Source: a virus. From it: a stretch of 64,000 bases of DNA. The position numbers and the translations under genes are program-made. Below, piece after piece: positions 41,199 through 55,393 of this stretch. Under the pieces are notes generated by a model that did no database searches, was not told the origin of the DNA, and saw only the letters and a list, made by a program, of their open reading frames with translations. Every line of letters starts with the position of its first letter. The first letter of the stretch is position 1. The stretch spans positions 89,712 to 153,711 of IMG/VR virus record IMGVR_UViG_3300046318_000491; one strand, 5' to 3'.

Positions 41199-42091
41199 GA
41201 TTCTACCTTAGCATACAAAGAAGTCAAGTGGTGCATCGACATAGTTGGACGAATTTTTCAAAAATTTGTGGAGGCCGATTTTAAAAAAGGGGGGTCTTCA
41301 GGATGGGAGGAATTTGTTGTATTTGCAAACGGATATGGTATAGTAGGCGTCTACTGCTTTTGGCGTGTGAGTGGGTAGCAGCTATATATCGACCTCTTCG
41401 AAAACGTTTCCTGATTTCGGTCTGAGAGTTGGTCGAATCTTCCTACGAAATCCGTGACGGACTGCCTTGGGTCTTGCCTCTCTTCTCTACCAGCCAGTTC
41501 CCCCCCTCAGCCCTCCAATACAAACATCTGATTACACATCAAAGATTACGACAGCCCTCGACTCCTCTGCTCATGACTTCAAACAAGTAGTCATCTACTT
41601 CATCACAAGTGCTATGCCACTAACATCTAACGAGCATAGAACAACATTCATTCAAAGTAACCCGGATCGAAATCTTCTCAAGAAACTTTCAATGAATGTC
41701 ATCTAACAACGACAGAAAAAATAAATACCTACACCACCCGACCAAATCTCTGACGACATCAAACATCTACACGACTAGCAAGGCTATGCTCATCATTTCC
41801 ACAAGAACTGGGAACAATGCCCATGCTCTCTCTGCTCTGCTCACATACGCCCGCCTAAGCCCGCTACGCTTATGCTCTTATTTATTCAATGAATAGGGGG
41901 TTGAACTGCTATGACTGACCAGCCTGAACTCTCTAGGACTACCCAACGGCAAGCACATACGAGCCAGCAAAGCCCGTGTTAGTCCACGCACGCCCGTGTA
42001 GTCCTAACTCCTCTACAACGCCCACACAAGGCTTACGGCAGGCAAAAGAAAACCCCCACCAGCGAACTGGCAGGGGCTTTCGTTTGAACTG

Positions 42092-42253
42092 TTAGAAGGT
42101 GCGGAAGGTGAAGGTGCGACCGTCTGTCATTAGAGACTTAGTTGCCTCGATGATTTCAATGGCACGCTTGACTGAGTTAGCCTCATAGGTTGGCTGTGAA
42201 GATAGGGTTCCGTCTGCTTCGTAAACGGTGATTTCGATTCCAGTGAAACGCAT
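42092..42253 (-). CDS. Microprotein (53 aa), paralog of 43160-43330
   Basis: Start revised to MRFTGIEI (RBS GAAGGA). Confidence 0.7.
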   Translation of the reverse strand: MRFTGIEITVYEADGTLSSQPTYEANSVKRAIEIIEATKSLMTDGRTFTFRTF

Positions 42254-42463
42254 TTTGTTTTTCCTTCTGTAGCCCTCCACCCCCTTGGCTTCCTGACTAC
42301 ATAAGTAGTCTATCACACCAATACCAAAAAACGCAAATCAAATCCCGTGCCTCACCCCCGTGTCTGACTTTCGACAGAAAAAATAAATACCCCTCGGCGA
42401 GCGCGAAATCCGAACGGCAAAAGAAAAAACCCCCGCCGAAGCGAGGGTCTTTCAGAAATCTAT

Positions 42464-42634
42464 TTAGGAATGGTCTAACTTCCAACCAAGCCAAGTGAAG
42501 CCAACGGCGAGCGCAAACAATAGAAACTCCACAATGGCGGGCGCACCGCCTACGGCATAGCCGAACAGCCAGACAAATCCCAAGCCTACGGCAAGCCCAT
42601 AGGCGACCACAGCGAACTCTCGGTAGGCTTTCAC
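42464..42634 (-). CDS. Two-TM membrane microprotein (56 aa)
   Basis: Read by hand: MKAYREFAVVAYGLAVGLGFVWLFG...; GTGA coupling with the upstream ORF. Confidence 0.6.
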   Translation of the reverse strand: MKAYREFAVVAYGLAVGLGFVWLFGYAVGGAPAIVEFLLFALAVGFTWLGWKLDHS

Positions 42635-42753
42635 TTCTCCGACCGCCTACGAGCCAGATACGCCTCATGCTGGGCATGGCGGAAAGTGTAGAACGCTTTA
42701 TCGCTCAACCACGCCCAAAGGCGATAGACAGCCGTGTGATAAGTCTTACGCAT
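42631..42753 (-). CDS. Microprotein (40 aa)
   Basis: Read by hand: MRKTYHTAVYRLWAWLSDK...; TAATG coupling. Confidence 0.55.
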   Translation of the reverse strand: MRKTYHTAVYRLWAWLSDKAFYTFRHAQHEAYLARRRSEK

Positions 42754-42947
42754 TATGAACCTGCCTTTGCTTGACGCTTTGCCTGACCTGCCAACTTACG
42801 CTTTACATAGCGACTGACTTCGACCTCAACTGGCTTAGGCTTACGGCACTCGCCACAAACCTGCTTTGATGAGTAGTAGTAGCCAACCTCTGTGTGAAAC
42901 TGTTCACCGCAGTTGTAGCAGTGAAGCCAAACCTTGTTGCCTGACAT
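42753..42947 (-). CDS. Zinc-ribbon microprotein
   Basis: CYNC...CGEC with a basic tail; RBS AAGGGG. Confidence 0.7.
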   Translation of the reverse strand: MSGNKVWLHCYNCGEQFHTEVGYYYSSKQVCGECRKPKPVEVEVSRYVKRKLAGQAKRQAKAGS

Positions 42948-43159
42948 CTGAACCCCTTACCCCAATCCCTCTGACTGGATACTCCCAGTCTACTCTAACC
43001 CTCTGACAAAACGCAACACCTCTCCGCGTGTGTCGCCGTGCCCCCGCCCGTGCCAACGCTGACAGAAAAAATAAATACCGCACGCCAGCGAAAAAATCGC
43101 CAGCCAGCGAGCAAAGAAAAAACCCCCTGCCTCTCGGCAAGGGGTTAGTTCGTTTACTT

Positions 43160-43330
43160 CTATCGGTGACCTACAACGCTAAAGGTCATAGTATTACCGC
43201 TACCTGCGATAAGTTCCTCGGTACGTTCGATAATCTCCTGTGCCTTGTCCCACGAGTGGCACTCGTAGACTGGCTCAATGTAGTTTCCGTCTGGCTCTGT
43301 AATCTTGATTACAAGTGAGTTGATAGTCAT
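43160..43330 (-). CDS. Microprotein (56 aa), paralog of 42092-42253
   Basis: Read by hand: MTINSLVIKITEPDGNYIEPVYECHSWDKAQEIIERT...; RBS AAGGGGG. Confidence 0.65.
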   Translation of the reverse strand: MTINSLVIKITEPDGNYIEPVYECHSWDKAQEIIERTEELIAGSGNTMTFSVVGHR

Positions 43331-43342
43331 TCGTGCGCCCCC

Positions 43343-43666
43343 TTACAAGGTCTTTAGGTAGTCGTATTCGGTGGTCTTTAGAGTTGCCTCGTAAGCCTCT
43401 GGGAATAGCGACTTCATTAGTTCACGGTCAAAGTGTGTGTTAGCACCGTTCACAACACGAACGGCAACTACGCCCTCAACAACGCCAGCCTTTGCCTCGC
43501 CTAGAGCCTCACGCAAGATAGCCTCTGCCTTTGACTTTAGGGCCTTAGCCTTTGCCTCTGCCGCTTTTGCTTTGTTGAAAGTGGTGAGAGCCTTGATAGC
43601 CTTTGCTGAAAGTTCTACGCCCTCTACGGTCTTGTTGCTCTTTACTGCTACAACTGTGTTAGCCAT
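43343..43666 (-). CDS. Hypothetical protein, similar to 49179-49559
   Basis: Start revised to MANTVV (RBS AAGGGG). Confidence 0.7.
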   Translation of the reverse strand: MANTVVAVKSNKTVEGVELSAKAIKALTTFNKAKAAEAKAKALKSKAEAILREALGEAKAGVVEGVVAVRVVNGANTHFDRELMKSLFPEAYEATLKTTEYDYLKTL

Positions 43667-43886
43667 TTGGCTACCCCTTATCTTTTCTACCAGCCTTGTT
43701 GCTGATGTATTCAGCATACAGGCATTACTTCCGAAAGTCAAATCCAAATCCACAAATCTTTTCCCGTGTCGTCGCCCGCCGGGTTGTCGGCAGAAAAAAT
43801 AAATACCCATACCCGGTAGCAAAATAAATCCGAACGGCAAAGAAAAAAGGCTGAGCATTTCTGCCCAGCCTCTCGTCTTGAAACTT

Positions 43887-44234
43887 CTACGCTAACGCCC
43901 TCAAGTTCGCACCCGCACTCGCAAGGTTGCGAATCATTCGAGCGTTGTCCTCGGTGAGTCCTAGAGTGTCGCCGTCTTCGTCTGTCCCACCCGTAAACAC
44001 TACGCTGCCCTGAATGTCGTAGTTCCCACCAACGGTAGCAAAGAAAACAGTTCCTATTGCGTTTGGTTCTGGTTCGTTCCTCAAGAGAAACTCCTCGTTC
44101 ACCCACATAATCAAGTTCTCGTTGATGTCGATAGCCTCGATCCAGCCGTCTACGCCTGCTTGTAGTTCCTCTAGAGAAACTCCAGTCTCCGTGACATTGT
44201 AGTTTGCGTCTACTACTAGAGCCAACTTTTCCAT
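43887..44234 (-). CDS. DUF3846-like protein
   Basis: LEELQ..VDGWIE...MWVNEE...N.IG...I.G.VVFTG; start revised. Confidence 0.7.
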   Translation of the reverse strand: MEKLALVVDANYNVTETGVSLEELQAGVDGWIEAIDINENLIMWVNEEFLLRNEPEPNAIGTVFFATVGGNYDIQGSVVFTGGTDEDGDTLGLTEDNARMIRNLASAGANLRALA

Positions 44235-44508
44235 TTGAATCCCCAATCCATAAACCACTCTGGCTTATGTTCTAAGTTTACCAATACCCACTGACATTTT
44301 CAACTTCTCACCGTGCGTGTTTCTTCGTTCGTTCGTTGTTGCGGTATACGCAGAAAAAATAAATACCCACCGCACGCACCAAAATTATTCGAGCGAGCAA
44401 CAAAAAACCCGATAGCACAATCACTATCGGGTCTCTCGGAGAAAGAAACGAGGGGGCGTTTCCGTTATCTCTGTCGCTACCAAAGGGGGATAAGGTAGCG
44501 AGTTCTAT

Positions 44509-44736
44509 TTAGTTGTTGGGGTCGTAGTCGGCGTAGTAGTCGTCTCGCAAGTCTTCCTTGCTAGGCACTTCGACTTCTAGGACTGAACGGCACTTAGGAC
44601 ATTCGGCTGTCACAGTAGTTCCGTAGTCGTCTGTCTGACCGTCTAGTTCCATTTCTTCGTCGCAGTGTGAGCAGAAAAACCAAGCGGTGTAATCGGTAGA
44701 GTCAATCCCTGACCCTTTCATTGAAAACCCAGGCAT
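44509..44736 (-). CDS. Zinc-ribbon microprotein
   Basis: CSHC...CPKC. Confidence 0.7.
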   Translation of the reverse strand: MPGFSMKGSGIDSTDYTAWFFCSHCDEEMELDGQTDDYGTTVTAECPKCRSVLEVEVPSKEDLRDDYYADYDPNN

Positions 44737-44888
44737 TAGTGGTTCATCTCAAATCCTGCTGAATACTCGACGCCCGCTGGAGTTGGGTCGTAGCAATCCT
44801 GACATACGCCACCTGCTACATAGTATTCGGCAACCATTGGGTTGCTCTCTGTAATCTTGCTCTCGCAGTTTGGACACTTCTCTGACAT
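44736..44888 (-). CDS. Zinc-ribbon microprotein (50 aa)
   Basis: Read by hand: MSEKCPNC...CQDC...; RBS AAGGGG. Confidence 0.65.
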   Translation of the reverse strand: MSEKCPNCESKITESNPMVAEYYVAGGVCQDCYDPTPAGVEYSAGFEMNH

Positions 44889-45119
44889 CTGAAACCCCTT
44901 GTCTGCCAACCCCTTGTTGGCTACAAGAACTACATTACAGGATACCTACGACAAACGCAAATCGAAACGCCGAAAACTTTTCCGTGTCGCCAACCCCGCG
45001 AGCGCGTTCACAGAAAAAATAAATACCCCTCGGCAGACGAGAAACTCGGCGAGCAAGGCAAAAAGAAAACCCCCGCATTTCTGCGAGGGTTGTCTTGAAA
45101 CTGTATCTGATTTGGCGTA

Positions 45120-45344
45120 TTACTCGCCTACGATTCTGTCTATCAAGCGTGAGACCTGCGGTGAGAATGTAAGCATTAGGGCAATGATTACGCCTAGCCC
45201 CAAGCCATTCTGGAAAACTTCTTCACTTGAAACGGTAGGCTCTGCCCCTGCGATTACCAACCATAGGTAGGCAAGCGTGTAAACCCCTGCGACTACTGGA
45301 ATAGAGATAATCCCTACAACTGCTCTGCGAATGTAAAACTTCAT
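45120..45344 (-). CDS. Two-TM membrane microprotein
   Basis: Hydrophobic helices; own promoter and RBS. Confidence 0.7.
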   Translation of the reverse strand: MKFYIRRAVVGIISIPVVAGVYTLAYLWLVIAGAEPTVSSEEVFQNGLGLGVIIALMLTFSPQVSRLIDRIVGE

Positions 45345-45422
45345 TTTGAATCCCCTTTTCTAGTTAGGCTTTCTAACTACTTACAGTTTACCCTACAACT
45401 TTTTGAATGTCAAGCATTTCTT

Positions 45423-45587
45423 TTAGTAGTTCTCATTGACATACTCAACCAGTTCATCTTGCGACTTACCAGCACGAATCAAGTCCTTGACTTCTTCGTC
45501 TTCGGCAAGCAACTCAAACATAACCGTAGTCTCACCTGACAAGACAATCAACTTCTCGAACAACGATAGTTCTCTATTTAGAATCAT
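45423..45587 (-). CDS. Microprotein (54 aa)
   Basis: Start revised to MILNREL (RBS AAAGGGG). Confidence 0.65.
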   Translation of the reverse strand: MILNRELSLFEKLIVLSGETTVMFELLAEDEEVKDLIRAGKSQDELVEYVNENY

Positions 45588-45774
45588 TTGAATCCCCTTT
45601 GTTTGGATAGTCATACTTTATCACCAAGCACCGACATTTTCAACTTCCAACGAACCCGTGTCATCTCGCTGTCGCCGGCAGTCAGAAAAAATAAATACCC
45701 TCGGATTTCGAGAAAAAGATTTCGCGCAAACGCAAAAAAAAACGCCTGCCTTTCGGCAAGCGCTTCTTTTTAGT

Positions 45775-45903
45775 TCAACTACATAACTGTCCAGCAAACC
45801 AACTATCAAACTCGCTCTCGCAGTCCTCGCATAAAGGGTGAACGGTTGTTATGTCTTCGACTTCTATCGCCGTGTCACATTGGTAACACTCTGTCTTAGC
45901 CAT
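45775..45903 (-). CDS. Zinc-ribbon microprotein (42 aa)
   Basis: Read by hand: MAKTECYQC...LCEDC...; TAATG coupling. Confidence 0.6.
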   Translation of the reverse strand: MAKTECYQCDTAIEVEDITTVHPLCEDCESEFDSWFAGQLCS

Positions 45904-46151
45904 TAGTCAATACCCCAACAATCGGCACACTTCGGAACAGTAAACCCTGAACCATTTGCCTTGTTGTTCTCGTAGTGGAGGTGGAGGCTCTCGTCTAGCA
46001 CAATCGTCTTATCACATTGACGGCACGACACTTCGTAAGTGTTCTCAGTCATCATTCGTGAACGGTTATACATCTTCGAGATTTCGTAGTTGATTTCGTC
46101 ATCTGACATTTCGACGGCAGACTTACTCAAGTTCGTAGTCCGTGTCATCAA
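45903..46151 (-). CDS. Zinc-ribbon small protein
   Basis: CRQC...CADC; start uncertain. Confidence 0.6.
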   Translation of the reverse strand: MMTRTTNLSKSAVEMSDDEINYEISKMYNRSRMMTENTYEVSCRQCDKTIVLDESLHLHYENNKANGSGFTVPKCADCWGID

Positions 46152-46404
46152 GCCAAGTTTCTAGACGGTGTCCGTCGATTACTGCCCACGCTGGAGCGGC
46201 AGTCAATCCCTTGTAACCCACGCCATCTGGCATACTAATCAAACGATTCGGCTCGCCATTGTTGTAATGCTCAATCGCTTCAACGCAAACTGGAACCATT
46301 GACAACGGCACAGGTGGAAAAAAGTTGCCACGCAAGTGCCAAGTGATTTGTTCTTCTAGTGGAATACCAGTTTCGGCGATTCCTTCGGCATACATTCTAC
46401 CCAT
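46123..46404 (-). CDS. Hypothetical protein
   Basis: 93 aa with RBS AGGGG and a promoter. Confidence 0.7.
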   Translation of the reverse strand: MGRMYAEGIAETGIPLEEQITWHLRGNFFPPVPLSMVPVCVEAIEHYNNGEPNRLISMPDGVGYKGLTAAPAWAVIDGHRLETWLDDTDYELE

Positions 46405-46677
46405 TTACTTCCCCTAATCTTTCGGTGTAGCCCTATTGCTACATCTGTAATCTTACTCTACTTCCAACGACTTCGCAACTCTCGTTCGTTGTGTGTCCCG
46501 CAGCTCGCAGAAAAAATAAATACCGCCTACACAAACAAAAATCGAAAAGCAAAACGGTAAAAGAAAAAGTGGTATCAGACGGGGGGTCCAATACCACTTC
46601 TCTTTGAGGCGAGCGAAAGGGGGATAACTCTCGCCTCCATCAGTTAGGGAGGTTACTCGACCTAACTAACTTCTACT

Positions 46678-47013
46678 CTACACTAAAGTTTTTGAAAACT
46701 CGTCGTGTTCAACATCTTGATACGTGTAAACGCCTGTGTCTGCGTTTACGAATACAGTTGGAGCATCTGCCCACTCCGAGCCAGTCACCTTGCCTGTGTA
46801 AATCCCGAATGACAGTTCGCCATCATAGTTGCCAATCTTTGCGAACTCGTAGAAAATCTGTGCGGTGAGATAACTAGGGTCGCCAATACGCCCTGAACGC
46901 TCTAGCACGCTACGAACAGCAAGAATGTTGTCATCGCCTGACCAATGTCCATAAAATACAACTGGAATCTCGAACTGCTCTGACGAGACTTCGATAAATG
47001 CTCTGTTTCCCAT
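46678..47013 (-). CDS. Hypothetical protein
   Basis: Start revised to MGNRAFI; Y.HW.G and D..YLTA motifs. Confidence 0.7.
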   Translation of the reverse strand: MGNRAFIEVSSEQFEIPVVFYGHWSGDDNILAVRSVLERSGRIGDPSYLTAQIFYEFAKIGNYDGELSFGIYTGKVTGSEWADAPTVFVNADTGVYTYQDVEHDEFSKTLV

Positions 47014-47226
47014 TTGAATCCCCTTATCTGTAACCAATCTGGCTACATACATAGATTACCATGCTCATGCGAGAAAGTCAAACCTCGCTCACTTCAAACG
47101 AATCGTGTGTTCGCACGTGCGGCAGCGCGGCAGAAAAAATAAATACCACCGGCAACGACGCAAATTGTTTCGCAAGGCATAAAAAAACTCCCCGCCTTTC
47201 AGCGAGGAGTTCTTTCGTTTGAAGTT

Positions 47227-47619
47227 CTATACTAACTCTGGCTCTGGCTCAAAGTCACGAACCAAAACATTTCGAGTAAATACGCTCGAACCCCAGTTCA
47301 AGTCGTGTCCTACTGCCTCTGCCTCAAGTTCAACGGAAGTTCCTGAACGCTCACCGTTATCCCAATCACGCACACGCAATACGCCCTGAACCATAATGCG
47401 GTCGCCCTTGTTCACCGAACCAGAAACATTTATAGCAAGTTGCTTGAAAGCGGTAATCGTATACCAGTTGGTCTCGCCATCTACCCACTTGTCTAATGCT
47501 CTGTCGAATCGGCGGTTGCTACTTGCTAGTCGGAATGATGTAATCGCCAAGCCCTCGGCTGTGACGATGTGTCGTGGTGTAGTTGCTACTAGTCCAGCAA
47601 CGCTAATGGTCTCTGCCAT
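47227..47619 (-). CDS. ssb: Single-stranded DNA-binding protein (actinobacterial type, short C-terminus)
   Basis: OB-fold motifs SFRLAS..R.FD....WVDGETNWY...LA.NV..S..KGDR..V.G.L...E.EA..VG.DL. Confidence 0.9.
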   Translation of the reverse strand: MAETISVAGLVATTPRHIVTAEGLAITSFRLASSNRRFDRALDKWVDGETNWYTITAFKQLAINVSGSVNKGDRIMVQGVLRVRDWDNGERSGTSVELEAEAVGHDLNWGSSVFTRNVLVRDFEPEPELV

Positions 47620-47971
47620 TTTTCCCTTTCAGTAGATTACTGAATTTCATCTACATAAGAATCTTACCAGACTGCTACGACAAATACAACTTACAAACAA
47701 CTCCGCGTCTGCTCGCTCGACGGAAGTTGTCAGAAAAAATAAATACCCTCTTGCGGTAAAAAAATAATCCCCAGAAAAAACTAAAAGACCAGAAAAGCAC
47801 AATGCGTTATCTGGTCTTGAAGTTTGACCCCAGGGTCTGTGTTTAGCGACACTGCTGTCGGTTTCCCTAACATAGTAGCGAAGTTTTTAGGCGAAGAAAT
47901 AGAGTCTAGAATACTCAATCACCGCAACCCACTCACCGACCTCCGTGGTTCAATGTGTTAGGCAAGTCTAT

Positions 47972-48091
47972 TTAGTTTTCGTCGTCGTGAGAGAAATACT
48001 TATTGGAACACTCAACGCACATACCAAGTTCTTCGGCATGAACGTCGGCTTCAATCATCTCGCCACATACGTCGCAAGGCAACTTACTCAT
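47972..48091 (-). CDS. Zinc-ribbon microprotein (39 aa)
   Basis: Read by hand: MSKLPCDVC...MCVEC... Confidence 0.6.
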   Translation of the reverse strand: MSKLPCDVCGEMIEADVHAEELGMCVECSNKYFSHDDEN

Positions 48092-48308
48092 CTTCGCTGA
48101 ACTCATCTAGAGCGTCGCGTGCCACGCTCCAAGTCGCCCCCATGTCGCGGAGCAAATCCTTTTCTTCCAAGTAGTGTTCCTGAATGAACTCAATGGCAAG
48201 TTCCAATGCGTTCACCGCACTCTCGGTAACTACCTCTAGTTCAATCTCGGTGTCTACTATCGAACTGATAGCGGCACACAAGTTCAGTTCGTCCTGACGC
48301 TTGCTCAT
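48084..48308 (-). CDS. Acidic hypothetical protein
   Basis: 74 aa with promoter and RBS. Confidence 0.65.
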   Translation of the reverse strand: MSKRQDELNLCAAISSIVDTEIELEVVTESAVNALELAIEFIQEHYLEEKDLLRDMGATWSVARDALDEFSEDE

Positions 48309-48473
48309 TCTCTTACCCCTTTCTTAGGTAATCTCACTTTACCATAACCCTCGGACAAAATACAAAACATTCTTCCCGTGTTTTCCGCGAGCGCGAATGT
48401 TGTCAGAAAAAATAAATACGACCTACGGCAAAAAAAACGCCGACCAAAAAAGTCGGCGTTCGTTTTTTGTTTG

Positions 48474-48770
48474 TTAGTGCGAAATCAAATCTGCGTATTC
48501 ATCTACACGCTTCAACAAATCTTCTGCGGTGTTTGGAATGTCCAACCCAGCCAGTCGCATGCTTGTCTTCATGACCAAATCTGCGGTGCTAAGTCCGAGA
48601 GCGAGAGCAAGATTCTCAATCACTTCTGATGAGGCTTCTTTTTGCCCTCGTTCGACTTCTGACAAATACCCCAGAGCGATAAACCCTGATGTGCTCAAAT
48701 CTCGTAGCGTCTTCTTTTTGGCGGTGCGTTGCTCACGCAAGACCTCGCCCAATGCTTCACGAAATAACAT
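48474..48770 (-). CDS. XRE-family HTH regulator, ClgR-like
   Basis: LFREALGEVLR..R....TLRDLS....IALGYLSEVERGQKEASSE closely matches actinobacterial ClgR-type regulators. Confidence 0.85.
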   Translation of the reverse strand: MLFREALGEVLREQRTAKKKTLRDLSTSGFIALGYLSEVERGQKEASSEVIENLALALGLSTADLVMKTSMRLAGLDIPNTAEDLLKRVDEYADLISH

Positions 48771-48986
48771 TTACTTCCCTCCCTTGCGGTGCTTGTCCAA
48801 CGGCAGACCTGCTTTGCGTAGTTGCGACTTCAAGTTCAACACGCCACGAGCGTTAGATGGCGTGCTGGCAGAGTAGAAACGCTCGCCAGTCGGTGCTGTC
48901 CAGCATAGGTGGTCGTTCTTTGTGCGCTCAACAGTCCAGCCAAGTTTCTCAGCCAAGACCCTAAGTTGTTTGATGTCTTTTCTCAT
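48771..48986 (-). CDS. HicA-like small protein
   Basis: L..LAEKLGW.VERT.N.H.....P.G......TPS pattern; start revised. Confidence 0.6.
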   Translation of the reverse strand: MRKDIKQLRVLAEKLGWTVERTKNDHLCWTAPTGERFYSASTPSNARGVLNLKSQLRKAGLPLDKHRKGGK

Positions 48987-49178
48987 CATTCCCCTTTTCG
49001 TGATGTATCTCATCACTAAGACCATTCTACTCTAGACCCCTGACATTTTGGAATACCCACGCCAAAAGTTTTCGTGTCTGGTCGAACCCTCCAGAAAAAA
49101 TAAATACCTGCCCTGCCAAAAAAATCGGGGCAAAAAAAAAACGCTGACGATTTCTCGCCAGCGTTCTTTTCGGTGTTT

Positions 49179-49559
49179 TTAGAGAATGTCAATCCTCAAA
49201 GTTGATTCCCCTGCGCCACGCTCGATGGTGTAGCGAGGCTTGATGATGTCGTAAATCTCTGGCATCTCCAACTTCAAAGCCTCCCAGTCGAATGACGCTG
49301 ATGACTGGACAACCTTGACGCTAATCAGACGCTTGCCCTTTGCGTCTGTGCCAATCAGGGTGGTGGCAGTCTTGCCCACGAAATCTAAAATAGCGTCTCG
49401 TGCTGTATCCCCAAGTTCCTTGGACTGCTTGGCAATGTTGCGTGCCTCGCGAAGCGTGTTCACTTCGGTCTGAATCTTGCGAGGTAGGACAAGCAAGTTG
49501 TCCTTGGTGGTGCTGGTAATGCTGGTGGTCGCCTTAGCAACCTTGGTGGTGTTAGCCAT
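49179..49559 (-). CDS. Hypothetical protein, similar to 43343-43666
   Basis: Start revised to MANTTK (RBS AGGAGG). Confidence 0.7.
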   Translation of the reverse strand: MANTTKVAKATTSITSTTKDNLLVLPRKIQTEVNTLREARNIAKQSKELGDTARDAILDFVGKTATTLIGTDAKGKRLISVKVVQSSASFDWEALKLEMPEIYDIIKPRYTIERGAGESTLRIDIL

Positions 49560-49721
49560 TTGATTTCCTCCTGTGTTTGTTATCAGTGGGTCTAACAAAA
49601 TCTACTTTACCAGAGTCCTCCGACATTTTACAAATCCAAGTGCGTGTTTCGTGGATTATTTTTTTCGGGGTCGGAAAGTTCCAGAAAAAATAAATACCCT
49701 CCGTCGAAAGAAAAACGAGGC

Positions 49722-50579
49722 TTACGCCTCGCTCTCCTCGTCCAATGTCGGGAACAACTTTTGACCCGTGTTCTCGTCCACGACCCAGAATGAATCTGAA
49801 TCCTCTGCGGTTAGTTCGTCCAACTTGTCTTGGGCAACTTCCCACGCACCCTCCGCTGAAGTTGCTCGCACAATGTATCGGCGTTCAACGACAACAACGA
49901 AGTCCGTTTCCTGACGAGGGCAGTCCTCGTAAAAGTCTTCCTCGTCTCCGTTTTCGCAAGCCCAGCAGGCTCGACCCAATGCGTCATAGTCGGCGTGGCT
50001 CTGCGGAATGTCCCACTCCCTCGTCATGATTAGCGACTTTGTAGGCACGCCGTTCTCGTCTACATCATCTCCGTCTGACGAAGTGAACTCCGCACCCCAG
50101 CCCTGTTCCTCCTCGCAAGAAAAGTCGAACGAAAGTTCTGGGTGCTGTCGAACGATAGCCGTGAATACCTGCTCTGGGATTCCCCATGCCGTTTCAAACG
50201 AGTAGCCCAAGTAAGCCGCTTTATCGTCCGTCATGTCCGTCAAGTTCACGCTACCAGCGTCCCACTTCACGCCCCAGTTGCTGACATTCCAGTCATACCA
50301 GCCGTCTGATTCGTGTTTCATAGCAATAGCCATGCGGTCTTCCATGCTCATCTCGGCGTATCCGTCTGGCTTGTAATCGCTCGCCCCGAAGTAGCGTGGC
50401 TTGTTCTCTGGTTCAATGAAGTTCCAGAACGATAGCGGTGAGGCGTTCTCGTCCTTGTATTCAAGCACGCCGTCCTCGCTGATTCCGCTAGGGGCAATCT
50501 TGCTCGCCTTATCACGAAACGCAATCAGGTCTTTAGCCGTGCCGTTTACATTCATGTTGTTGTAGACCCAGTTAGGCAT
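49722..50579 (-). CDS. DUF1281/YubB-like ferredoxin-fold protein
   Basis: MPNWVYN, WYDWN..NWGVKWD and FETAW..P motifs. Confidence 0.75.
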   Translation of the reverse strand: MPNWVYNNMNVNGTAKDLIAFRDKASKIAPSGISEDGVLEYKDENASPLSFWNFIEPENKPRYFGASDYKPDGYAEMSMEDRMAIAMKHESDGWYDWNVSNWGVKWDAGSVNLTDMTDDKAAYLGYSFETAWGIPEQVFTAIVRQHPELSFDFSCEEEQGWGAEFTSSDGDDVDENGVPTKSLIMTREWDIPQSHADYDALGRACWACENGDEEDFYEDCPRQETDFVVVVERRYIVRATSAEGAWEVAQDKLDELTAEDSDSFWVVDENTGQKLFPTLDEESEA

Positions 50580-50581
50580 TT

Positions 50582-50875
50582 CTACCACGCACCCTTGTCT
50601 ACATCAAGCCTGTGAGCGTCAATCATTTCATTCACAGTTTCACCTGCGAACATCTTGGCTACCGCCAATCGTGTTGCGAGTTCTGGCTCGTTCAACTTCT
50701 GTGCCAACTTCTCTGCCAACGCCAGCACCTTATACATGGTTGGGTCGCAGTAGCCATCTCGGCAGTAGTCCTCTACCAGCACGCCAATCGTGGCAAGTGC
50801 CATGCCAGCAATCTCGTGGTCGTCTAGTTCCATGTGGTCTAGTTCGTCCATGTTTCCTGAACAGTTATTACACAT
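50582..50875 (-). CDS. Hypothetical protein
   Basis: Start revised to MCNNCSG (RBS AAAGGGG). Confidence 0.65.
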   Translation of the reverse strand: MCNNCSGNMDELDHMELDDHEIAGMALATIGVLVEDYCRDGYCDPTMYKVLALAEKLAQKLNEPELATRLAVAKMFAGETVNEMIDAHRLDVDKGAW

Positions 50876-51199
50876 TTGAAATCCCCTTTCTTGGAATCGT
50901 ATTAGAACTTTACCATAGACTTCCGACAAATACAAACACCATTCGTTAGAAGTTTCTCTTTCTTTTTTGCGACTCGGAACTGACAGAAAAAATAAATACC
51001 ACCCCGCTGAAAAAAAATCCCGCTGAACTTTCCACGAGACCAATCCGTGTTCGTTGGAAGTGGAATGGCATTTTGTAATCGCACGAGCAAACAAAAAACC
51101 CCCAACAATCCGTGAGGACTATCGGGGGCTAAGTGGTGTCCACTAGCGAACCAACGAAAGGACGAACAAACGCAATCCGCTAGTGGAACTCTGCTTCCC

Positions 51200-52954
51200 C
51201 TAAACGCTCGCTTTCATGAGTGCGTCCGTTGCGCTCTTGCCAATCGCAAACGCAATCTCCTTGGTCTCCAGTCCGTCTAAGACCACGCCGTTTCCACCGA
51301 CCAACTGCGCACCTAAACCACGCCCACATTCCTTTGGCGTAATCCAGAGAACTGCCACGCCGTTTTCCTTACACAAGCGAGCCGTCTCTTTCGCTCGGTT
51401 AGTTTCCTCGCCTGTGTAATGTCCGTCTGAAACGACAACCAACAAACGCACGCCGTTTCCGTTGGTCAAGTCAAGTGCGCCGTCAAGTGCTTTGAACGCC
51501 TTGCCAAAAAGTTCCGTTCCGTCTGGTGCGGTATAGACCGAAACCTTTTCCAATCGCTGACCGACCTTGAGAGTCGGGAATACGCCAGAGCCATAGTAGA
51601 CCATAGCGGTCTTGGCTTGAACTCGGCGACCTGCTTCGCCAAGAACCCAAGCCGTAGTTGCCATGCTCTCCATAGCCGAACCCATAGAACCGCTAATGTC
51701 CACCATGATTCCGATAGAGAGTGTCGGGTCGTCTGTGTGCTTGCGTGTCTTGTGCTTCCATGCTGGATTCAAGTCTCGCACGCCCTTGGCTTTCAACGCT
51801 TCGTTCTGAACAAGCACTCGTGCCTTTAGGCGACCAACTGGCTCGTGAGACTTGATTACAGTTTCCGAGCGTTCACGATACTTTGCCTTTTCCAACATCT
51901 GACCAATCTTGACTGCGCTTGCTCGCTCGTGTCCAGTTGGGTTGCGCTGTTCTTGTAGGCGTGAACGAGAACCAGAACCCTCTGACCCAGTTGCCTTGGC
52001 AAAAACTTCTTTGGCTTCCTGCTTCGATTCGCTCTGACGCTTCGATTCGCTCTGACGCTCTTTGGCTTCCTGCTTCCAATCCTCTTGGGTCTGCTGGTCT
52101 GACAAGTCCATAGACGCTGACATGGCTGTCTCACCTGCGTCTGATTCCATAGCGTCCATGAGTTCCTTTAGAAACTCTGGCACGCCACCCTGACCTGATT
52201 CGCCCTCTGGGTCTGCCTCTTTCAAAAGGTCGTTCCACTTTTCGGCGAGCGCAATCCCACGAGCAATCTCGCTCGTGTGTAGCGACTGGAACTCCACCCA
52301 GATAGAACGCAAGTTGTTGAACAAGTCCATGCCAATCACTTCGACAACCTTGTCGAAAGTTGATTTCACATCTGACAACTTGACAACTCCTGCGTCCACT
52401 CGTGCCAACGCTAATGCTGATACATGAGCGCACGCACGAATCTCTGTAAGATTCGCTATGGCTTCCTCGTCTACTCCCTGTAATGCGAGACCAAGTGCTG
52501 ACGAGCGCAAGAACAACTGATTCTCTGGCATTTGAATAACGCCCTTGCGTTCGATTCGTGATTCGTCTAGCAACTGAAAAGTGTTGAATACCTTTTCGTC
52601 CATAGACTTTAGGGCTGTCTTATCCCAGAGTGAGTAGCGAGCGTGAAGTGCCTCGTGATAAATCACGCCAGTTGGCTCTGCCCAATCGTATTGGGTTGTT
52701 CGCTCTGTAAAGTCGCCAACCATTTTCGGGGTCGTTGCTTTACCAAACGCCTGTGGAATGTTGATTTCGATTTCGGCTGTGTCTGTAAGGAAACAAGCAA
52801 GTGCCACGCCCATACCTGCGTCCTCACCTGCGTAAACTGCCAAGTCGTTTCGACCTGACCATGCGTTTACAACTGTGCCAATCTCTGCGCAAGTCTTTAG
52901 CCACTCTGGGGTAGTTGCGCTGGTGCGTGTTGCTAGTCGTGAAAAGTGAGACAT
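51200..52954 (-). CDS. CobT-like metallopeptidase-motif + VWA domain protein
   Basis: HEALH, E.RIE, MIDAS DISGSM and VVSDG. Confidence 0.85.
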   Translation of the reverse strand: MSHFSRLATRTSATTPEWLKTCAEIGTVVNAWSGRNDLAVYAGEDAGMGVALACFLTDTAEIEINIPQAFGKATTPKMVGDFTERTTQYDWAEPTGVIYHEALHARYSLWDKTALKSMDEKVFNTFQLLDESRIERKGVIQMPENQLFLRSSALGLALQGVDEEAIANLTEIRACAHVSALALARVDAGVVKLSDVKSTFDKVVEVIGMDLFNNLRSIWVEFQSLHTSEIARGIALAEKWNDLLKEADPEGESGQGGVPEFLKELMDAMESDAGETAMSASMDLSDQQTQEDWKQEAKERQSESKRQSESKQEAKEVFAKATGSEGSGSRSRLQEQRNPTGHERASAVKIGQMLEKAKYRERSETVIKSHEPVGRLKARVLVQNEALKAKGVRDLNPAWKHKTRKHTDDPTLSIGIMVDISGSMGSAMESMATTAWVLGEAGRRVQAKTAMVYYGSGVFPTLKVGQRLEKVSVYTAPDGTELFGKAFKALDGALDLTNGNGVRLLVVVSDGHYTGEETNRAKETARLCKENGVAVLWITPKECGRGLGAQLVGGNGVVLDGLETKEIAFAIGKSATDALMKASV

Positions 52955-53060
52955 GATTTCGTCCTTTCGTTGTCTCTTGCTTTGTTGCTAAATCCAACCT
53001 TACCAGAGTTGGTAGGGGAACGCAAGTTCATTCCCCTACCTTTTCTAGTAGAACGGATTA

Positions 53061-54089
53061 CTAGATTTTCGCTGGCATTACTGCTTCGCCGAAAACTCGT
53101 GTGAATACATCTGCCACGACTGACCTGTCAATCTCTGGTGCGCTGGCAAGTAGATTCTGAATCGCCCACTTTGAACCAAACAAGTTGGTCAAGTCTCGGA
53201 ACGCAAGCAACTCTCGGAACTGTGGAGACCATGAAGTCTCACCGTTCGACTGCTTCTTGGCAAGATTCTGTGAAGCCGAAACTGCTGTCGCTGGAACGCC
53301 CAACTTCTTAGCCAATGCCCAGTCTGTTGTCATTTCAACCTGAACGCTGAATCGTGATAGCAACGCTTCTGAAAGTCGAACTCCAGGTGCGTTAGGGTTG
53401 GTCGCACCAATGACGAAAAATCCGTCCTTTGCCTTGACTGTGCCTCGCTCTGGATTCTGGGTAATGGTGATTTCCTTGCGTCCGTCCATGAGACCATAAA
53501 CGGCAGACAAGACCTTTGGGTCAATGAGACCAATCTCGTCAATCAAAAGAACCTTGCCCTCCTCTGCTGACTTGACCAATGCGCCGTCCACCCATTCAAA
53601 AGAACCACTTGGGGTCTGAACATAGCCACCAATGAAGTCTGAAAGTTCGGTGTCGCCTGAACCAAGAACTGTGTAAAGGTCGTCTGGGAACGCACCCTCA
53701 ACGCACGCTGTCTTACCAGTTCCAGGTGCGCCATAGAGTAGAACATACTGACCTGCGCCACGAGCCTTGCGTAGAACCTCAATGTCTGTGTGGTCGCCCC
53801 AAGGACGAGCGTAGTAGTCCTGACCATTTGGTCGAACATACTTCTCTGCCCCTGCTAATGCTTCCACATTCACATTCCCTCTAGTAGACTTTGGCTTCGG
53901 AGTGCCAGTTCCGATTTTAGCACGAACATTTGCTCGTGCGCTGGCTGGCATAAGTGAGTCCAAACCTGCTGGAACTGCGCTTGGCTTTTCGTGCTGAATC
54001 GCAACGCCATAAATCAGACTTGATAGGTCTGGGTATAGCGTGTCAATAGTTTCCTCTGGTGCTGTTGCTGGTGCTGTAATGGTAGTCAT
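53061..54089 (-). CDS. MoxR/CbbQ/NorQ-type AAA+ ATPase
   Basis: GAPGTGKT, LLIDE, GATNP and ALLSRF; adjacent to the VWA gene. Confidence 0.9.
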   Translation of the reverse strand: MTTITAPATAPEETIDTLYPDLSSLIYGVAIQHEKPSAVPAGLDSLMPASARANVRAKIGTGTPKPKSTRGNVNVEALAGAEKYVRPNGQDYYARPWGDHTDIEVLRKARGAGQYVLLYGAPGTGKTACVEGAFPDDLYTVLGSGDTELSDFIGGYVQTPSGSFEWVDGALVKSAEEGKVLLIDEIGLIDPKVLSAVYGLMDGRKEITITQNPERGTVKAKDGFFVIGATNPNAPGVRLSEALLSRFSVQVEMTTDWALAKKLGVPATAVSASQNLAKKQSNGETSWSPQFRELLAFRDLTNLFGSKWAIQNLLASAPEIDRSVVADVFTRVFGEAVMPAKI

Positions 54090-54113
54090 GATTTTTCCGT
54101 CCTTTTTCTCTGA

Positions 54114-54650
54114 CTAAACTGTGGCTGGTGCTGGAGTGATAAACAACTTCTCTGGGAATCCAAGGGCAACTCGTGTCTTTTGGATTCGGCGTAGTGCGCT
54201 CGCTGGTGCTTTGTAATCACGAACATCTGTGAAATCTACATCTGTCATTTCAAAAACGATAGGGCGATTTCCACGCAAGGTCTTTAGACCATACATCATT
54301 TGACGCTTTAGAGTTCGCTCTACCTGCTCTGCCATGTTCAACGCCTTGTCCTCTGGTGCGAGAGTAGCCATTTCCTTGTCAATGCGAATACGATTCATGC
54401 GCCACTGCTTTCGTGGAGACCACTCTGAAACTGTGCGAGAAACAATCGCCATGTCTACTGGCTCGCCCTTTTCGTTAGTTCCCTGTGGGGTAATAAGAAT
54501 CTGGGTTGTCTGGTCTCCCTTGTCATTTGGAAACTCTAGGTAGATTCCCCTGCCCATAATACGAGGCTTATTTGAAGTCTCGCCTAGTGCTACTGCTTCT
54601 GCGACTTCTGGGGCTAGTTCCCCAAAAGTTCCCAATGAATCTGGATTCAT
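54114..54650 (-). CDS. Hypothetical protein
   Basis: Start revised to MNPDSLG (RBS GAAAGGA). Confidence 0.7.
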   Translation of the reverse strand: MNPDSLGTFGELAPEVAEAVALGETSNKPRIMGRGIYLEFPNDKGDQTTQILITPQGTNEKGEPVDMAIVSRTVSEWSPRKQWRMNRIRIDKEMATLAPEDKALNMAEQVERTLKRQMMYGLKTLRGNRPIVFEMTDVDFTDVRDYKAPASALRRIQKTRVALGFPEKLFITPAPATV

Positions 54651-54753
54651 GATTCGTCCTTTCAATCTGTGTCGCTGGATTTTTCCAACAAGTTCAACTT
54701 ACCATAGTTCGTTGGAAGTTGTCAAGTTCATTCCAAACTATTTTTTGGCGTGT

Positions 54754-55287
54754 CTAAAAGTGGAAGTCCACTGGGATTAGAAACTGGTTGTCTGGGCGTG
54801 TGGCTACTCGCGTTGTGAAGTAGCGCAAGTTTCCTGTCCAGTTCTCTATGTCATAGATACCTGTGTCGCAAGTCCATTCATCATCTAGGATTTGCGCCAA
54901 CTTCTTGGTAGCCCACAAGTCCATGTTGAGACCACTTGCGTAAGGGTCATAAGAATAGGTAGTTAGGTCAATCGCCTTTGACTTGTATTCACGAATGGAA
55001 GCCATTCGTTCCTCTAGGTAGCGAGTGATTACTTCCTCTGCTCGTGCTGGGTCATCTGAATAGCGCAAGTGGTTGGGATTAGTATCTGGGGTCTTGAACT
55101 CCCCATTCTCATTCACATCACCAAAGACTGCGCCAGACCAACGTCCTGCGAAGTTTAGGGAGTCTGAGTTGCTGGCGTTATGCCAATCAGACCAGCGAGG
55201 CTCGCCATCGCTGAAGTGGCTTTCGACATTACTAAACGCTTCCTCTGGGGTCTCTGCCTCCACGAGGATAATCTGGCATACGTGCAT
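54754..55287 (-). CDS. Hypothetical phage protein
   Basis: WSDW..GRWSG...VDFHF pattern; promoter and RBS present. Confidence 0.7.
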   Translation of the reverse strand: MHVCQIILVEAETPEEAFSNVESHFSDGEPRWSDWHNASNSDSLNFAGRWSGAVFGDVNENGEFKTPDTNPNHLRYSDDPARAEEVITRYLEERMASIREYKSKAIDLTTYSYDPYASGLNMDLWATKKLAQILDDEWTCDTGIYDIENWTGNLRYFTTRVATRPDNQFLIPVDFHF

Positions 55288-55393
55288 TTTTCGTCCTTTC
55301 AGTTATAAAACTTACTTGAACTTTACCAGATACCTCTGACATTTTCAAATCGCCGCGCTCGCGGTATTCGTGTCAGAAAAAATAAATACCTGA

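Follow-up and report, generated by a model that had tools for sequence, protein, structure and literature searches.

PafBC-like boxes in the promoters of a small-gene array from an uncultured lake phage

LexA/SOS-controlled phage promoters couple the phage programme to the host DNA-damage signal by de-repression at LexA operators. Here we propose that a similar coupling, through an activator box, may operate in an uncultured lake phage of ~154 kb. The window analysed, 64,000 nucleotides in length, is the final 64 kb of the 153.7-kb IMG/VR record IMGVR_UViG_3300046318_000491 (47% G+C; 127-bp terminal repeat), and the element in question is a TGTC box that recurs in ten promoters of an array of small genes in this window.

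The closest described promoters are those that depend on PafBC, which controls the response of actinobacteria to DNA damage as its master activator and does so in an unusual way, by adapting the housekeeping sigma factor. These RecA-NDp, or recA P1-type, promoters of Mycobacterium and other Actinobacteria contain a 22-nt motif, tGTCgg(N10)tA(N3)T in vivo, that joins a GTC core to a sigma-A −10 (PMC8635444; PMC11804915). The GTC, at −23 to −28 (~−26), is read by the helix-turn-helix (HTH) of PafB through R46 and R50, PafC contacts sigma region 4 (PMC8635444) and single-stranded DNA activates the complex (PMC11804915). A first-pass annotation of the window had invoked this motif and a response to single-stranded nucleic acid, in agreement with these papers. 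The middle promoters of T4, in which a MotA box at −30 and AsiA bring about sigma appropriation, likewise combine a host −10 with a specific upstream box, and the factor sits between sigma region 4 and DNA (PMC8635444). Ordinary early phage promoters of the sigma-70/sigma-A type consist of TTGnnn, a spacer of 17–18 nt and TGnTAnnnT, and come with a ribosome-binding site and an intrinsic terminator.

The array promoters share these ordinary features but have an extra conserved element of 6–9 nt in the spacer, which is absent from the ordinary promoters of host-like genomes. With PafBC-dependent promoters they share the 22-nt TGTC[A/G]G-N10-TAnnnT, the GTC near −26 and the sigma-A −10, a likeness read from sequence; they differ in occurring ten times in 13 kb, in having a TTG −35 at nine of the ten sites and an extended −10 at most, and in a position 6 that is mostly A. 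T4 uses its own factors and its box replaces the −35, whereas here the −35 is kept, there is no sequence relation and no phage factor was found: searches for PafB/C-like, WYL and sigma proteins (MotA and AsiA were not searched for) found no WYL-domain protein or sigma-70 region 2, and hmmsearch with profiles of PafB and of PafC, each built from five proteins both at full length and over the HTH alone, found no homologue among the six-frame open reading frames (ORFs) of the phage (all E > 0.2). A LexA box (TCGAAC-N4-GTTCG) was seen at none of the ten phage promoters, whereas host-like recA promoters do have one. No description of PafBC boxes in phage promoters came up in full-text literature searches. 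The present promoters stand out in that the box is regularly combined with a −35 in register and an extended −10.

We lean slightly towards reading the ten sites as sigma-A promoters of a hybrid kind, open to PafBC-loaded RNA polymerase as well. The broader proposal, that a large clade of freshwater actinophages, all uncultured, has adopted the host's PafBC (−26) element in its small-gene array promoters and that it is fused here with a working −35, so that the promoters would fire in both polymerase states, strikes us as evenly poised.

A TGTC box at a fixed distance from the −10

All ten sites listed in the first-pass annotation are present on the minus strand as TGTC-N12-TANNNT (Table 1). 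Its tally of hexamers (TGTCAG four times, TGTCGG three times, TGTCGT twice and TGTCCG once) is borne out, and its example, TTGAAA-ATGTCGGTGCTTGGTGA-TAAAGT, is site 45615. The sites are intergenic and lie 25–50 nt upstream of a Shine-Dalgarno sequence and start codon. In their make-up they are sigma-A promoters (a TTGnnn −35, a spacer of 16–18 nt, TAnnnT, an optional TG and a gene downstream), with a −10 of the form TAnnnT that usually carries the extended TG, and all ten fit the bipartite PafBC motif, with its fixed spacing and a GTC core near −26. The further claim that the box comes in addition to a normal −35 stands for nine of the sites, in which TTG precedes a spacer of 17 or 18 nt, and fails for 49024, which has neither TTG nor an extended −10.

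The pattern is strongly concentrated in the array. Across the whole window there are 17 matches where 7.6 are expected, a number reached in none of 100 shuffles, and on the minus strand between 41000 and 56500 (15.5 kb) there are 11 matches as against 0.44 ± 0.65 in 200 first-order Markov simulations, whose maximum was 3. The eleventh of these matches, at 49872, lies within an ORF and hence is not a promoter. Outside the array, over the remaining ~140 kb of the genome, its frequency does not exceed chance. The same element emerges when TGTC plays no part in the definition of a promoter and TTGNNN-N16-18-TANNNT or TGNTANNNT is required ahead of a ribosome-binding site and a start: of the 19 array promoters found in this way, nine have TGTC at −28 to −25, and any other tetramer appears there at most once.

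About nine further promoters lack TGTC (42307, 43713, 45385, 46450, 47053, 52997 and 54696, plus 40472 and 57412 just beyond the array bounds). Among them are all of the strong TTGACA/TTGACT promoters (43713, 45385, 47053, 54696 and 40472), whereas the TGTC promoters of this phage have TTGAAA, TTGTAT, TTGCGT or TTGTAA. TTGAC is thus found in none of the ten TGTC promoters and in five of the nine others (Fisher p = 0.011, calculated by hand), and the box accompanies the weaker −35. The idea that it makes up for a weak −35 is borne out in this phage but not in such relatives as L155 and L157, which combine TTGACA with TGTCAG, so that the inverse relation seen in the window is not general.

Searches for a dyad found no consistent inverted repeat around the TGTC box or around a GACACG that often lies upstream of it, and no CRP-like TGTGA-N6-TCACA was found by eye. 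An asymmetric site fixed relative to the −10 fits a single HTH acting within a polymerase complex, as PafB would, and not a dimeric operator.

Related phages and host-like genomes

The box and its spacing are conserved in related phages. A 96-kb relative (G001), found through a 16-mer repeated in the array, bears the pattern 26 times on one strand, with ~19 of these sites inside 15 kb, as against 6 for a reversed-pattern control. In 80 IMG/VR loci retrieved with the AAA_5 ATPase of the array (58–89% identity), the gene strand holds 217 matches to the pattern and the opposite strand 105, as against 28 and 80 for reversed controls. After removal of duplicates and with a ribosome-binding site and start codon required, 141 sites are left, with the consensus TTG-nn-AAA-TGTC-[A.54/G.33]-G-[A/T]-G-G ... 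TG-n-TAnAnT. The distance to the −10 is as strict as in the window: in these loci TGTC[AG]G is found 85 times at N12 and ~4 times at nearly all other spacings from 7 to 17 (20 at 7, 10 at 14). Most of the related loci lack the 16-mer, and the box is therefore more than a passenger of recently duplicated cassettes. One TGTC site that is conserved in a relative (G000:79903) was rejected as a promoter, as it lies within a helicase ORF.

The portal and capsid proteins of the phage are closest to those of the metagenomic Actinomycetia phage DSL-LC01 (69%), which iPHoP and HostG assign to Actinomycetia only (PMC10611076), and next closest to those of Microbacterium, Arthrobacter, Gordonia and Mycobacterium phages. 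These matches, together with two WhiB genes in its genome, mark the phage as an actinophage. Scanning genome contigs for WhiB gave no useful host assignment, the top matches being Actinotignum and others at 44%. Identity of the single-stranded-DNA-binding protein SSB was equally uninformative: the phage protein is 40–50% identical to a second SSB paralogue, present in some Actinomycetes genomes only, and ~33% identical to the main SSB. The 64-kb window has no tRNA genes. Megablast of the array against cultured phages gave no match, and blastn of a 41-nt promoter against the same phages gave chance matches in Salmonella phages only.

Candidate host lineages have the activator. In an even sample of the class, WYL-domain proteins are encoded by 399 of 401 Actinomycetes genomes (390 of 392 without nine that are unpublished, on which no other claim depends). 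About 28 of the sampled genomes are small (1.3–1.5 Mb), most with 47–52% G+C around recA; they are the only ones near the phage in composition and presumably belong to freshwater acI or Luna-type lineages. Five of these small low-GC genomes encode a tandem WYL gene pair (PafB/PafC). In G311, one of the five, the pair has M. smegmatis PafB (7P5X_AY, E 5e-40) and PafC (7P5X_AX, E 3e-20) as its matches, and R46 and R50 are kept in its PafB, the single one aligned.

These genomes also have the box. Of the 27 small genomes in which recA was matched, 26 have TGTC-N12-TANNNT upstream of it, in the form TGTCAGTGG-N7-TANNNT; the box mostly reads TGTCAGTGGCGCCTGCTACCTT, and a LexA box comes after it. 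It is likewise present in 27 of 29 diverse high-GC genomes, mostly as TGTCGG[T/A][G/C], and so recurs in the recA boxes of 53 of 56 Actinomycetes genomes, with the extended consensus that the phage has. The resemblance of the phage element to this motif holds up under a column-by-column comparison of the kind that the first-pass annotation had suggested: columns 4, 5, 7 and 8 correlate with the small-genome recA boxes at r = 0.97–1.00, and column shuffling gives p = 0.003 for phage versus small-genome motif. A preference for A over G at position 4 is common to the phage and the small genomes and is not found in the high-GC genomes.

Elsewhere in the small genomes the box is rare. Strict boxes (TGTCRGNGG-N7-TANNNT) number 3–4 per genome of ~1.4 Mb as against 0–1 for the control; all are TGTCRGTGG, most lack a −35 and many are leaderless. 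The looser TGTCNG-N10-TANNNT is not above control in these genomes. Given this rarity, the box is not a general spacer preference of sigma-A promoters. TTG is in register at two of the ten strict host-like sites, L256 (G311:1106441) and L258 (G247:524600), which pair the PafBC box and a LexA box with TTGCAG at a 17-nt spacer and TTGCTA at an 18-nt spacer, respectively, and hybrid promoters may therefore exist in cells too.

Other features of host-like genomes were seen in passing. Clusters of five or six TGTC[AG]G-N10-TANNNT sites, mostly TGTCAGTC, lie within 12–24 kb in two small genomes (G247:C1:420891-432683 and G299:C1:463090-487291) and may mark an island rich in PafBC-type promoters. In small low-GC genomes the recA promoter has GCGACAC(G/A)CC ~17 nt upstream of the TGTC box, and in most of the sampled high-GC genomes (L270-L298) the PafBC box of recA is preceded, at a distance of ~29 nt, by a DnaA-box-like TTGTCCACA or gTCCACAg.

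How the promoters might work, and other readings of the box

If the ten sites are hybrid promoters, free sigma-A holoenzyme would fire them through the −35 and the extended −10. Single-stranded DNA from infection, replication or damage would activate PafBC, and PafBC-loaded polymerase would use the TGTC box (−28 to −23) in place of the −35, the two elements serving as alternative entry routes rather than additive inputs. Expression of the array (with ssb, genes for recombination-like proteins and a regulator gene), which may begin early, would then persist or rise as the polymerase pool is reprogrammed. The first-pass annotation had spoken of dual-input promoters that let the host DNA-damage response boost early genes, including ssb. 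That an SSB is encoded behind promoter 47661 is correct, and the idea of dual input gains from the exact spacing across relatives, the match to recA boxes and the presence of PafBC in candidate lineages. A simple boost is less likely than two alternative modes, because published PafBC promoters have no −35 and PafBC occupies the place at which sigma region 4 contacts DNA.

Several observations weigh against PafBC control. The in vivo motif was defined at promoters without a −35, and PafBC is positioned between sigma region 4 and the DNA (PMC8635444), whereas nine of the ten sites in the window have TTG. Across the related loci TTG is in register at 81 of the 141 sites and absent at 60; with a TTG in place at so many promoters, here and in the group, PafBC is not obviously needed. 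Where TTG is missing, the extended −10 is commoner (55% vs 26%, p = 0.001), a compensation which suggests that those promoters work without an activator; box quality shows no difference between promoters with and without a −35. Position 6 is A or T in the phages, mostly A in this one, and the ten strict host-like sites all have T; over the class as a whole, A is as common as T in recA boxes. The enrichment is absent in eight cultured or named relatives (DSL-LC01, Pumpernickel, Zooman, Mimi, GMA2, Sixama, Phendrix and Bxz1). At orthologous ssb promoters, moreover, the box reads TGTCGG in L130, is mutated in L131 (TTTCGG) and L132 (TATCGG) and is absent in L128, L129 and L134: it behaves as a facultative, turning-over element which, being gained and lost, is not essential. 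Finally, a gene for an XRE-family regulator co-occurs with the box.

This last point raises the possibility that the box serves a regulator encoded by the phage, for instance the 98-aa XRE protein, which would switch the cassettes off, or on later, so that the resemblance to PafBC sites would reflect coincidence or competition for position. The HTH_3 gene of this protein lies in the array behind the sole TGTC promoter without a −35, phage repressor operators usually lie between −35 and −10, and a homologue is present in 33 of the 80 loci, where 12.2% of candidate promoters have TGTC as against 4.7% elsewhere. That association is confounded by relatedness and by short (10-kb) flanks, and it has exceptions in both directions, as four loci with 3–4 TGTC promoters lack a homologue and six with a homologue have 0–1 TGTC sites. 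The box also lacks the dyad symmetry that a dimeric XRE protein normally needs, and the sequence (TGTC[AG]GnGG) and position that it shares with host recA boxes would be left unexplained. We consider such a regulator unlikely, though the strongest of the alternatives.

We find it improbable that no dedicated protein reads the box, which would then be a feature of the spacer arising from DNA shape or from inheritance in duplicated cassettes, or that it is read by a host factor other than PafBC. The shared 16-mer does show that the cassettes are related by duplication, and the box is dispensable at orthologous promoters; yet between copies the flanks and the 12-nt interval vary while TGTC and the spacing persist, and this persistence extends to relatives without the 16-mer and to marker-protein identities of 58–89%. 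The ordinary promoters of host-like genomes lack TGTC. Least credible to us is a decoy, in which PafBC would be bound in order to draw activated PafBC and polymerase off the host regulon and so blunt the damage or defence response. The numbers would suit it, with 10–19 boxes in 13–15 kb of a replicating genome as against 3–4 strict boxes per 1.4-Mb host-like genome, and a study cited in PMC12848934, as it is presented there, links PafBC on the host side to phage resistance in mycobacteria. Every box, however, stands at the exact activating distance from a −10 and before a gene with a ribosome-binding site, so that any PafBC binding would also transcribe phage genes, and boxes are not found away from promoters, their frequency outside the array being that of chance.

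The cassette array and its wider meaning

The units of the array follow a common order: an intrinsic terminator, the 16-mer GTATTTATTTTTTCTG, often GACACG, and then a sigma-A-type promoter of TTGnnn, a spacer of 17–18 nt and TGnTAAAGT. There are 15 exact copies of the 16-mer on the minus strand between 41713 and 55374, each between a terminator and the next promoter. As no hairpin stands before it, a role as terminator tail is ruled out. Repeats of the 16-mer in other genomes are confined to three close relatives, L126, L127 and G001 (= L055/L135). Together with ACA it yields, in reverse complement, TGTCAGAAAAAATAAATACCCT (47728–47749, plus strand), an antisense match to the PafBC pattern that has a counterpart in G001 at 88233 and is probably incidental.

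The GACAC(G) element lies 23–39 nt upstream of TGTC at many array promoters (for example 43030, 44985, 45665, 49075 and 55368) and is also found in L230-L249. It precedes 30 of the 141 TGTC promoters of the phage group, 3–5 times the frequency of control pentamers, and promoters without TGTC as well. Short hairpins, often tgtag...ctaca, occur within the first 15–35 nt past the −10 of several promoters (for example 47661, 47053, 46450, 49024 and 45385); at the predicted 5′ ends of the transcripts they may act as stabilising stem-loops.

Genes behind TGTC promoters include ssb, a DUF3846 protein, the XRE regulator and the block with the AAA_5 ATPase (Table 1), and two of the proteins have a weak RecE-C-terminal-like PHROG match.

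Table 1. Promoters with a TGTC box and other annotated features of the array (positions in the window)
Feature	Position	Strand	−35	Spacer and box	Box hexamer	−10	Genes and matches
Cassette array	41713–55389	−					Repeated units
Promoter	42987–43016	−	TTGCGT	18 nt, with TGTCAGAGG	TGTCAG	TAGACT	
Promoter	44275–44303	−	TTGAAA	17 nt, with TGTCAGTGG	TGTCAG	TGgTAAACT	Drives DUF3846 gene, 43887–44234
Promoter	44932–44960	−	TTGCGT	17 nt, with TGTCGTAGG	TGTCGT	TGTAATGT	
Promoter	45615–45643	−	TTGAAA	17 nt, with TGTCGGTGC	TGTCGG	TAAAGT	
ssb, 130 aa	47227–47619	−					PF00436, E 4.7e-17; phrog_44
Promoter	47661–47689	−	TTGTAT	17 nt, with TGTCGTAGC	TGTCGT	TGGTAAGAT	Drives ssb
Promoter	48336–48365	−	TTGTAT	18 nt, with TGTCCGAGG	TGTCCG	TGGTAAAGT	
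XRE-family HTH regulator, 98 aa	48474–48770	−					PF01381 HTH_3, E 1.6e-6; PHROG transcription regulators
Promoter	49024–49045	−	No TTG	TGTCAGGGG	TGTCAG	TAGAAT	Drives 84-aa ORF and XRE regulator gene
Promoter	49604–49633	−	TTGTAA	18 nt, with TGTCGGAGG	TGTCGG	TGGTAAAGT	Drives 126-aa ORF, 49179–49559
Promoter	50907–50935	−	TTGTAT	17 nt, with TGTCGGAAG	TGTCGG	TGGTAAAGT	
Promoter	55320–55348	−	TTGAAA	17 nt, with TGTCAGAGG	TGTCAG	TGGTAAAGT	Heads block of 177-aa and 178-aa ORFs, AAA_5 ATPase and 584-aa ORF

If the box is read by PafBC, this phage would be the first virus to exploit sigma adaptation, and if phages of this group copied the box from their hosts, infection would be coupled to the host's own single-stranded-DNA signal. 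The natural hybrids of −35, −26 and extended −10 elements would in that case test whether the sigma region 4 and PafBC modes of promoter recognition are exclusive, and abundant lake phages would provide a set of variants for dissecting PafBC specificity. The use of TGTCAG rather than TGTCGG may, in addition, be of use in linking such phages to freshwater actinobacteria of low GC content.

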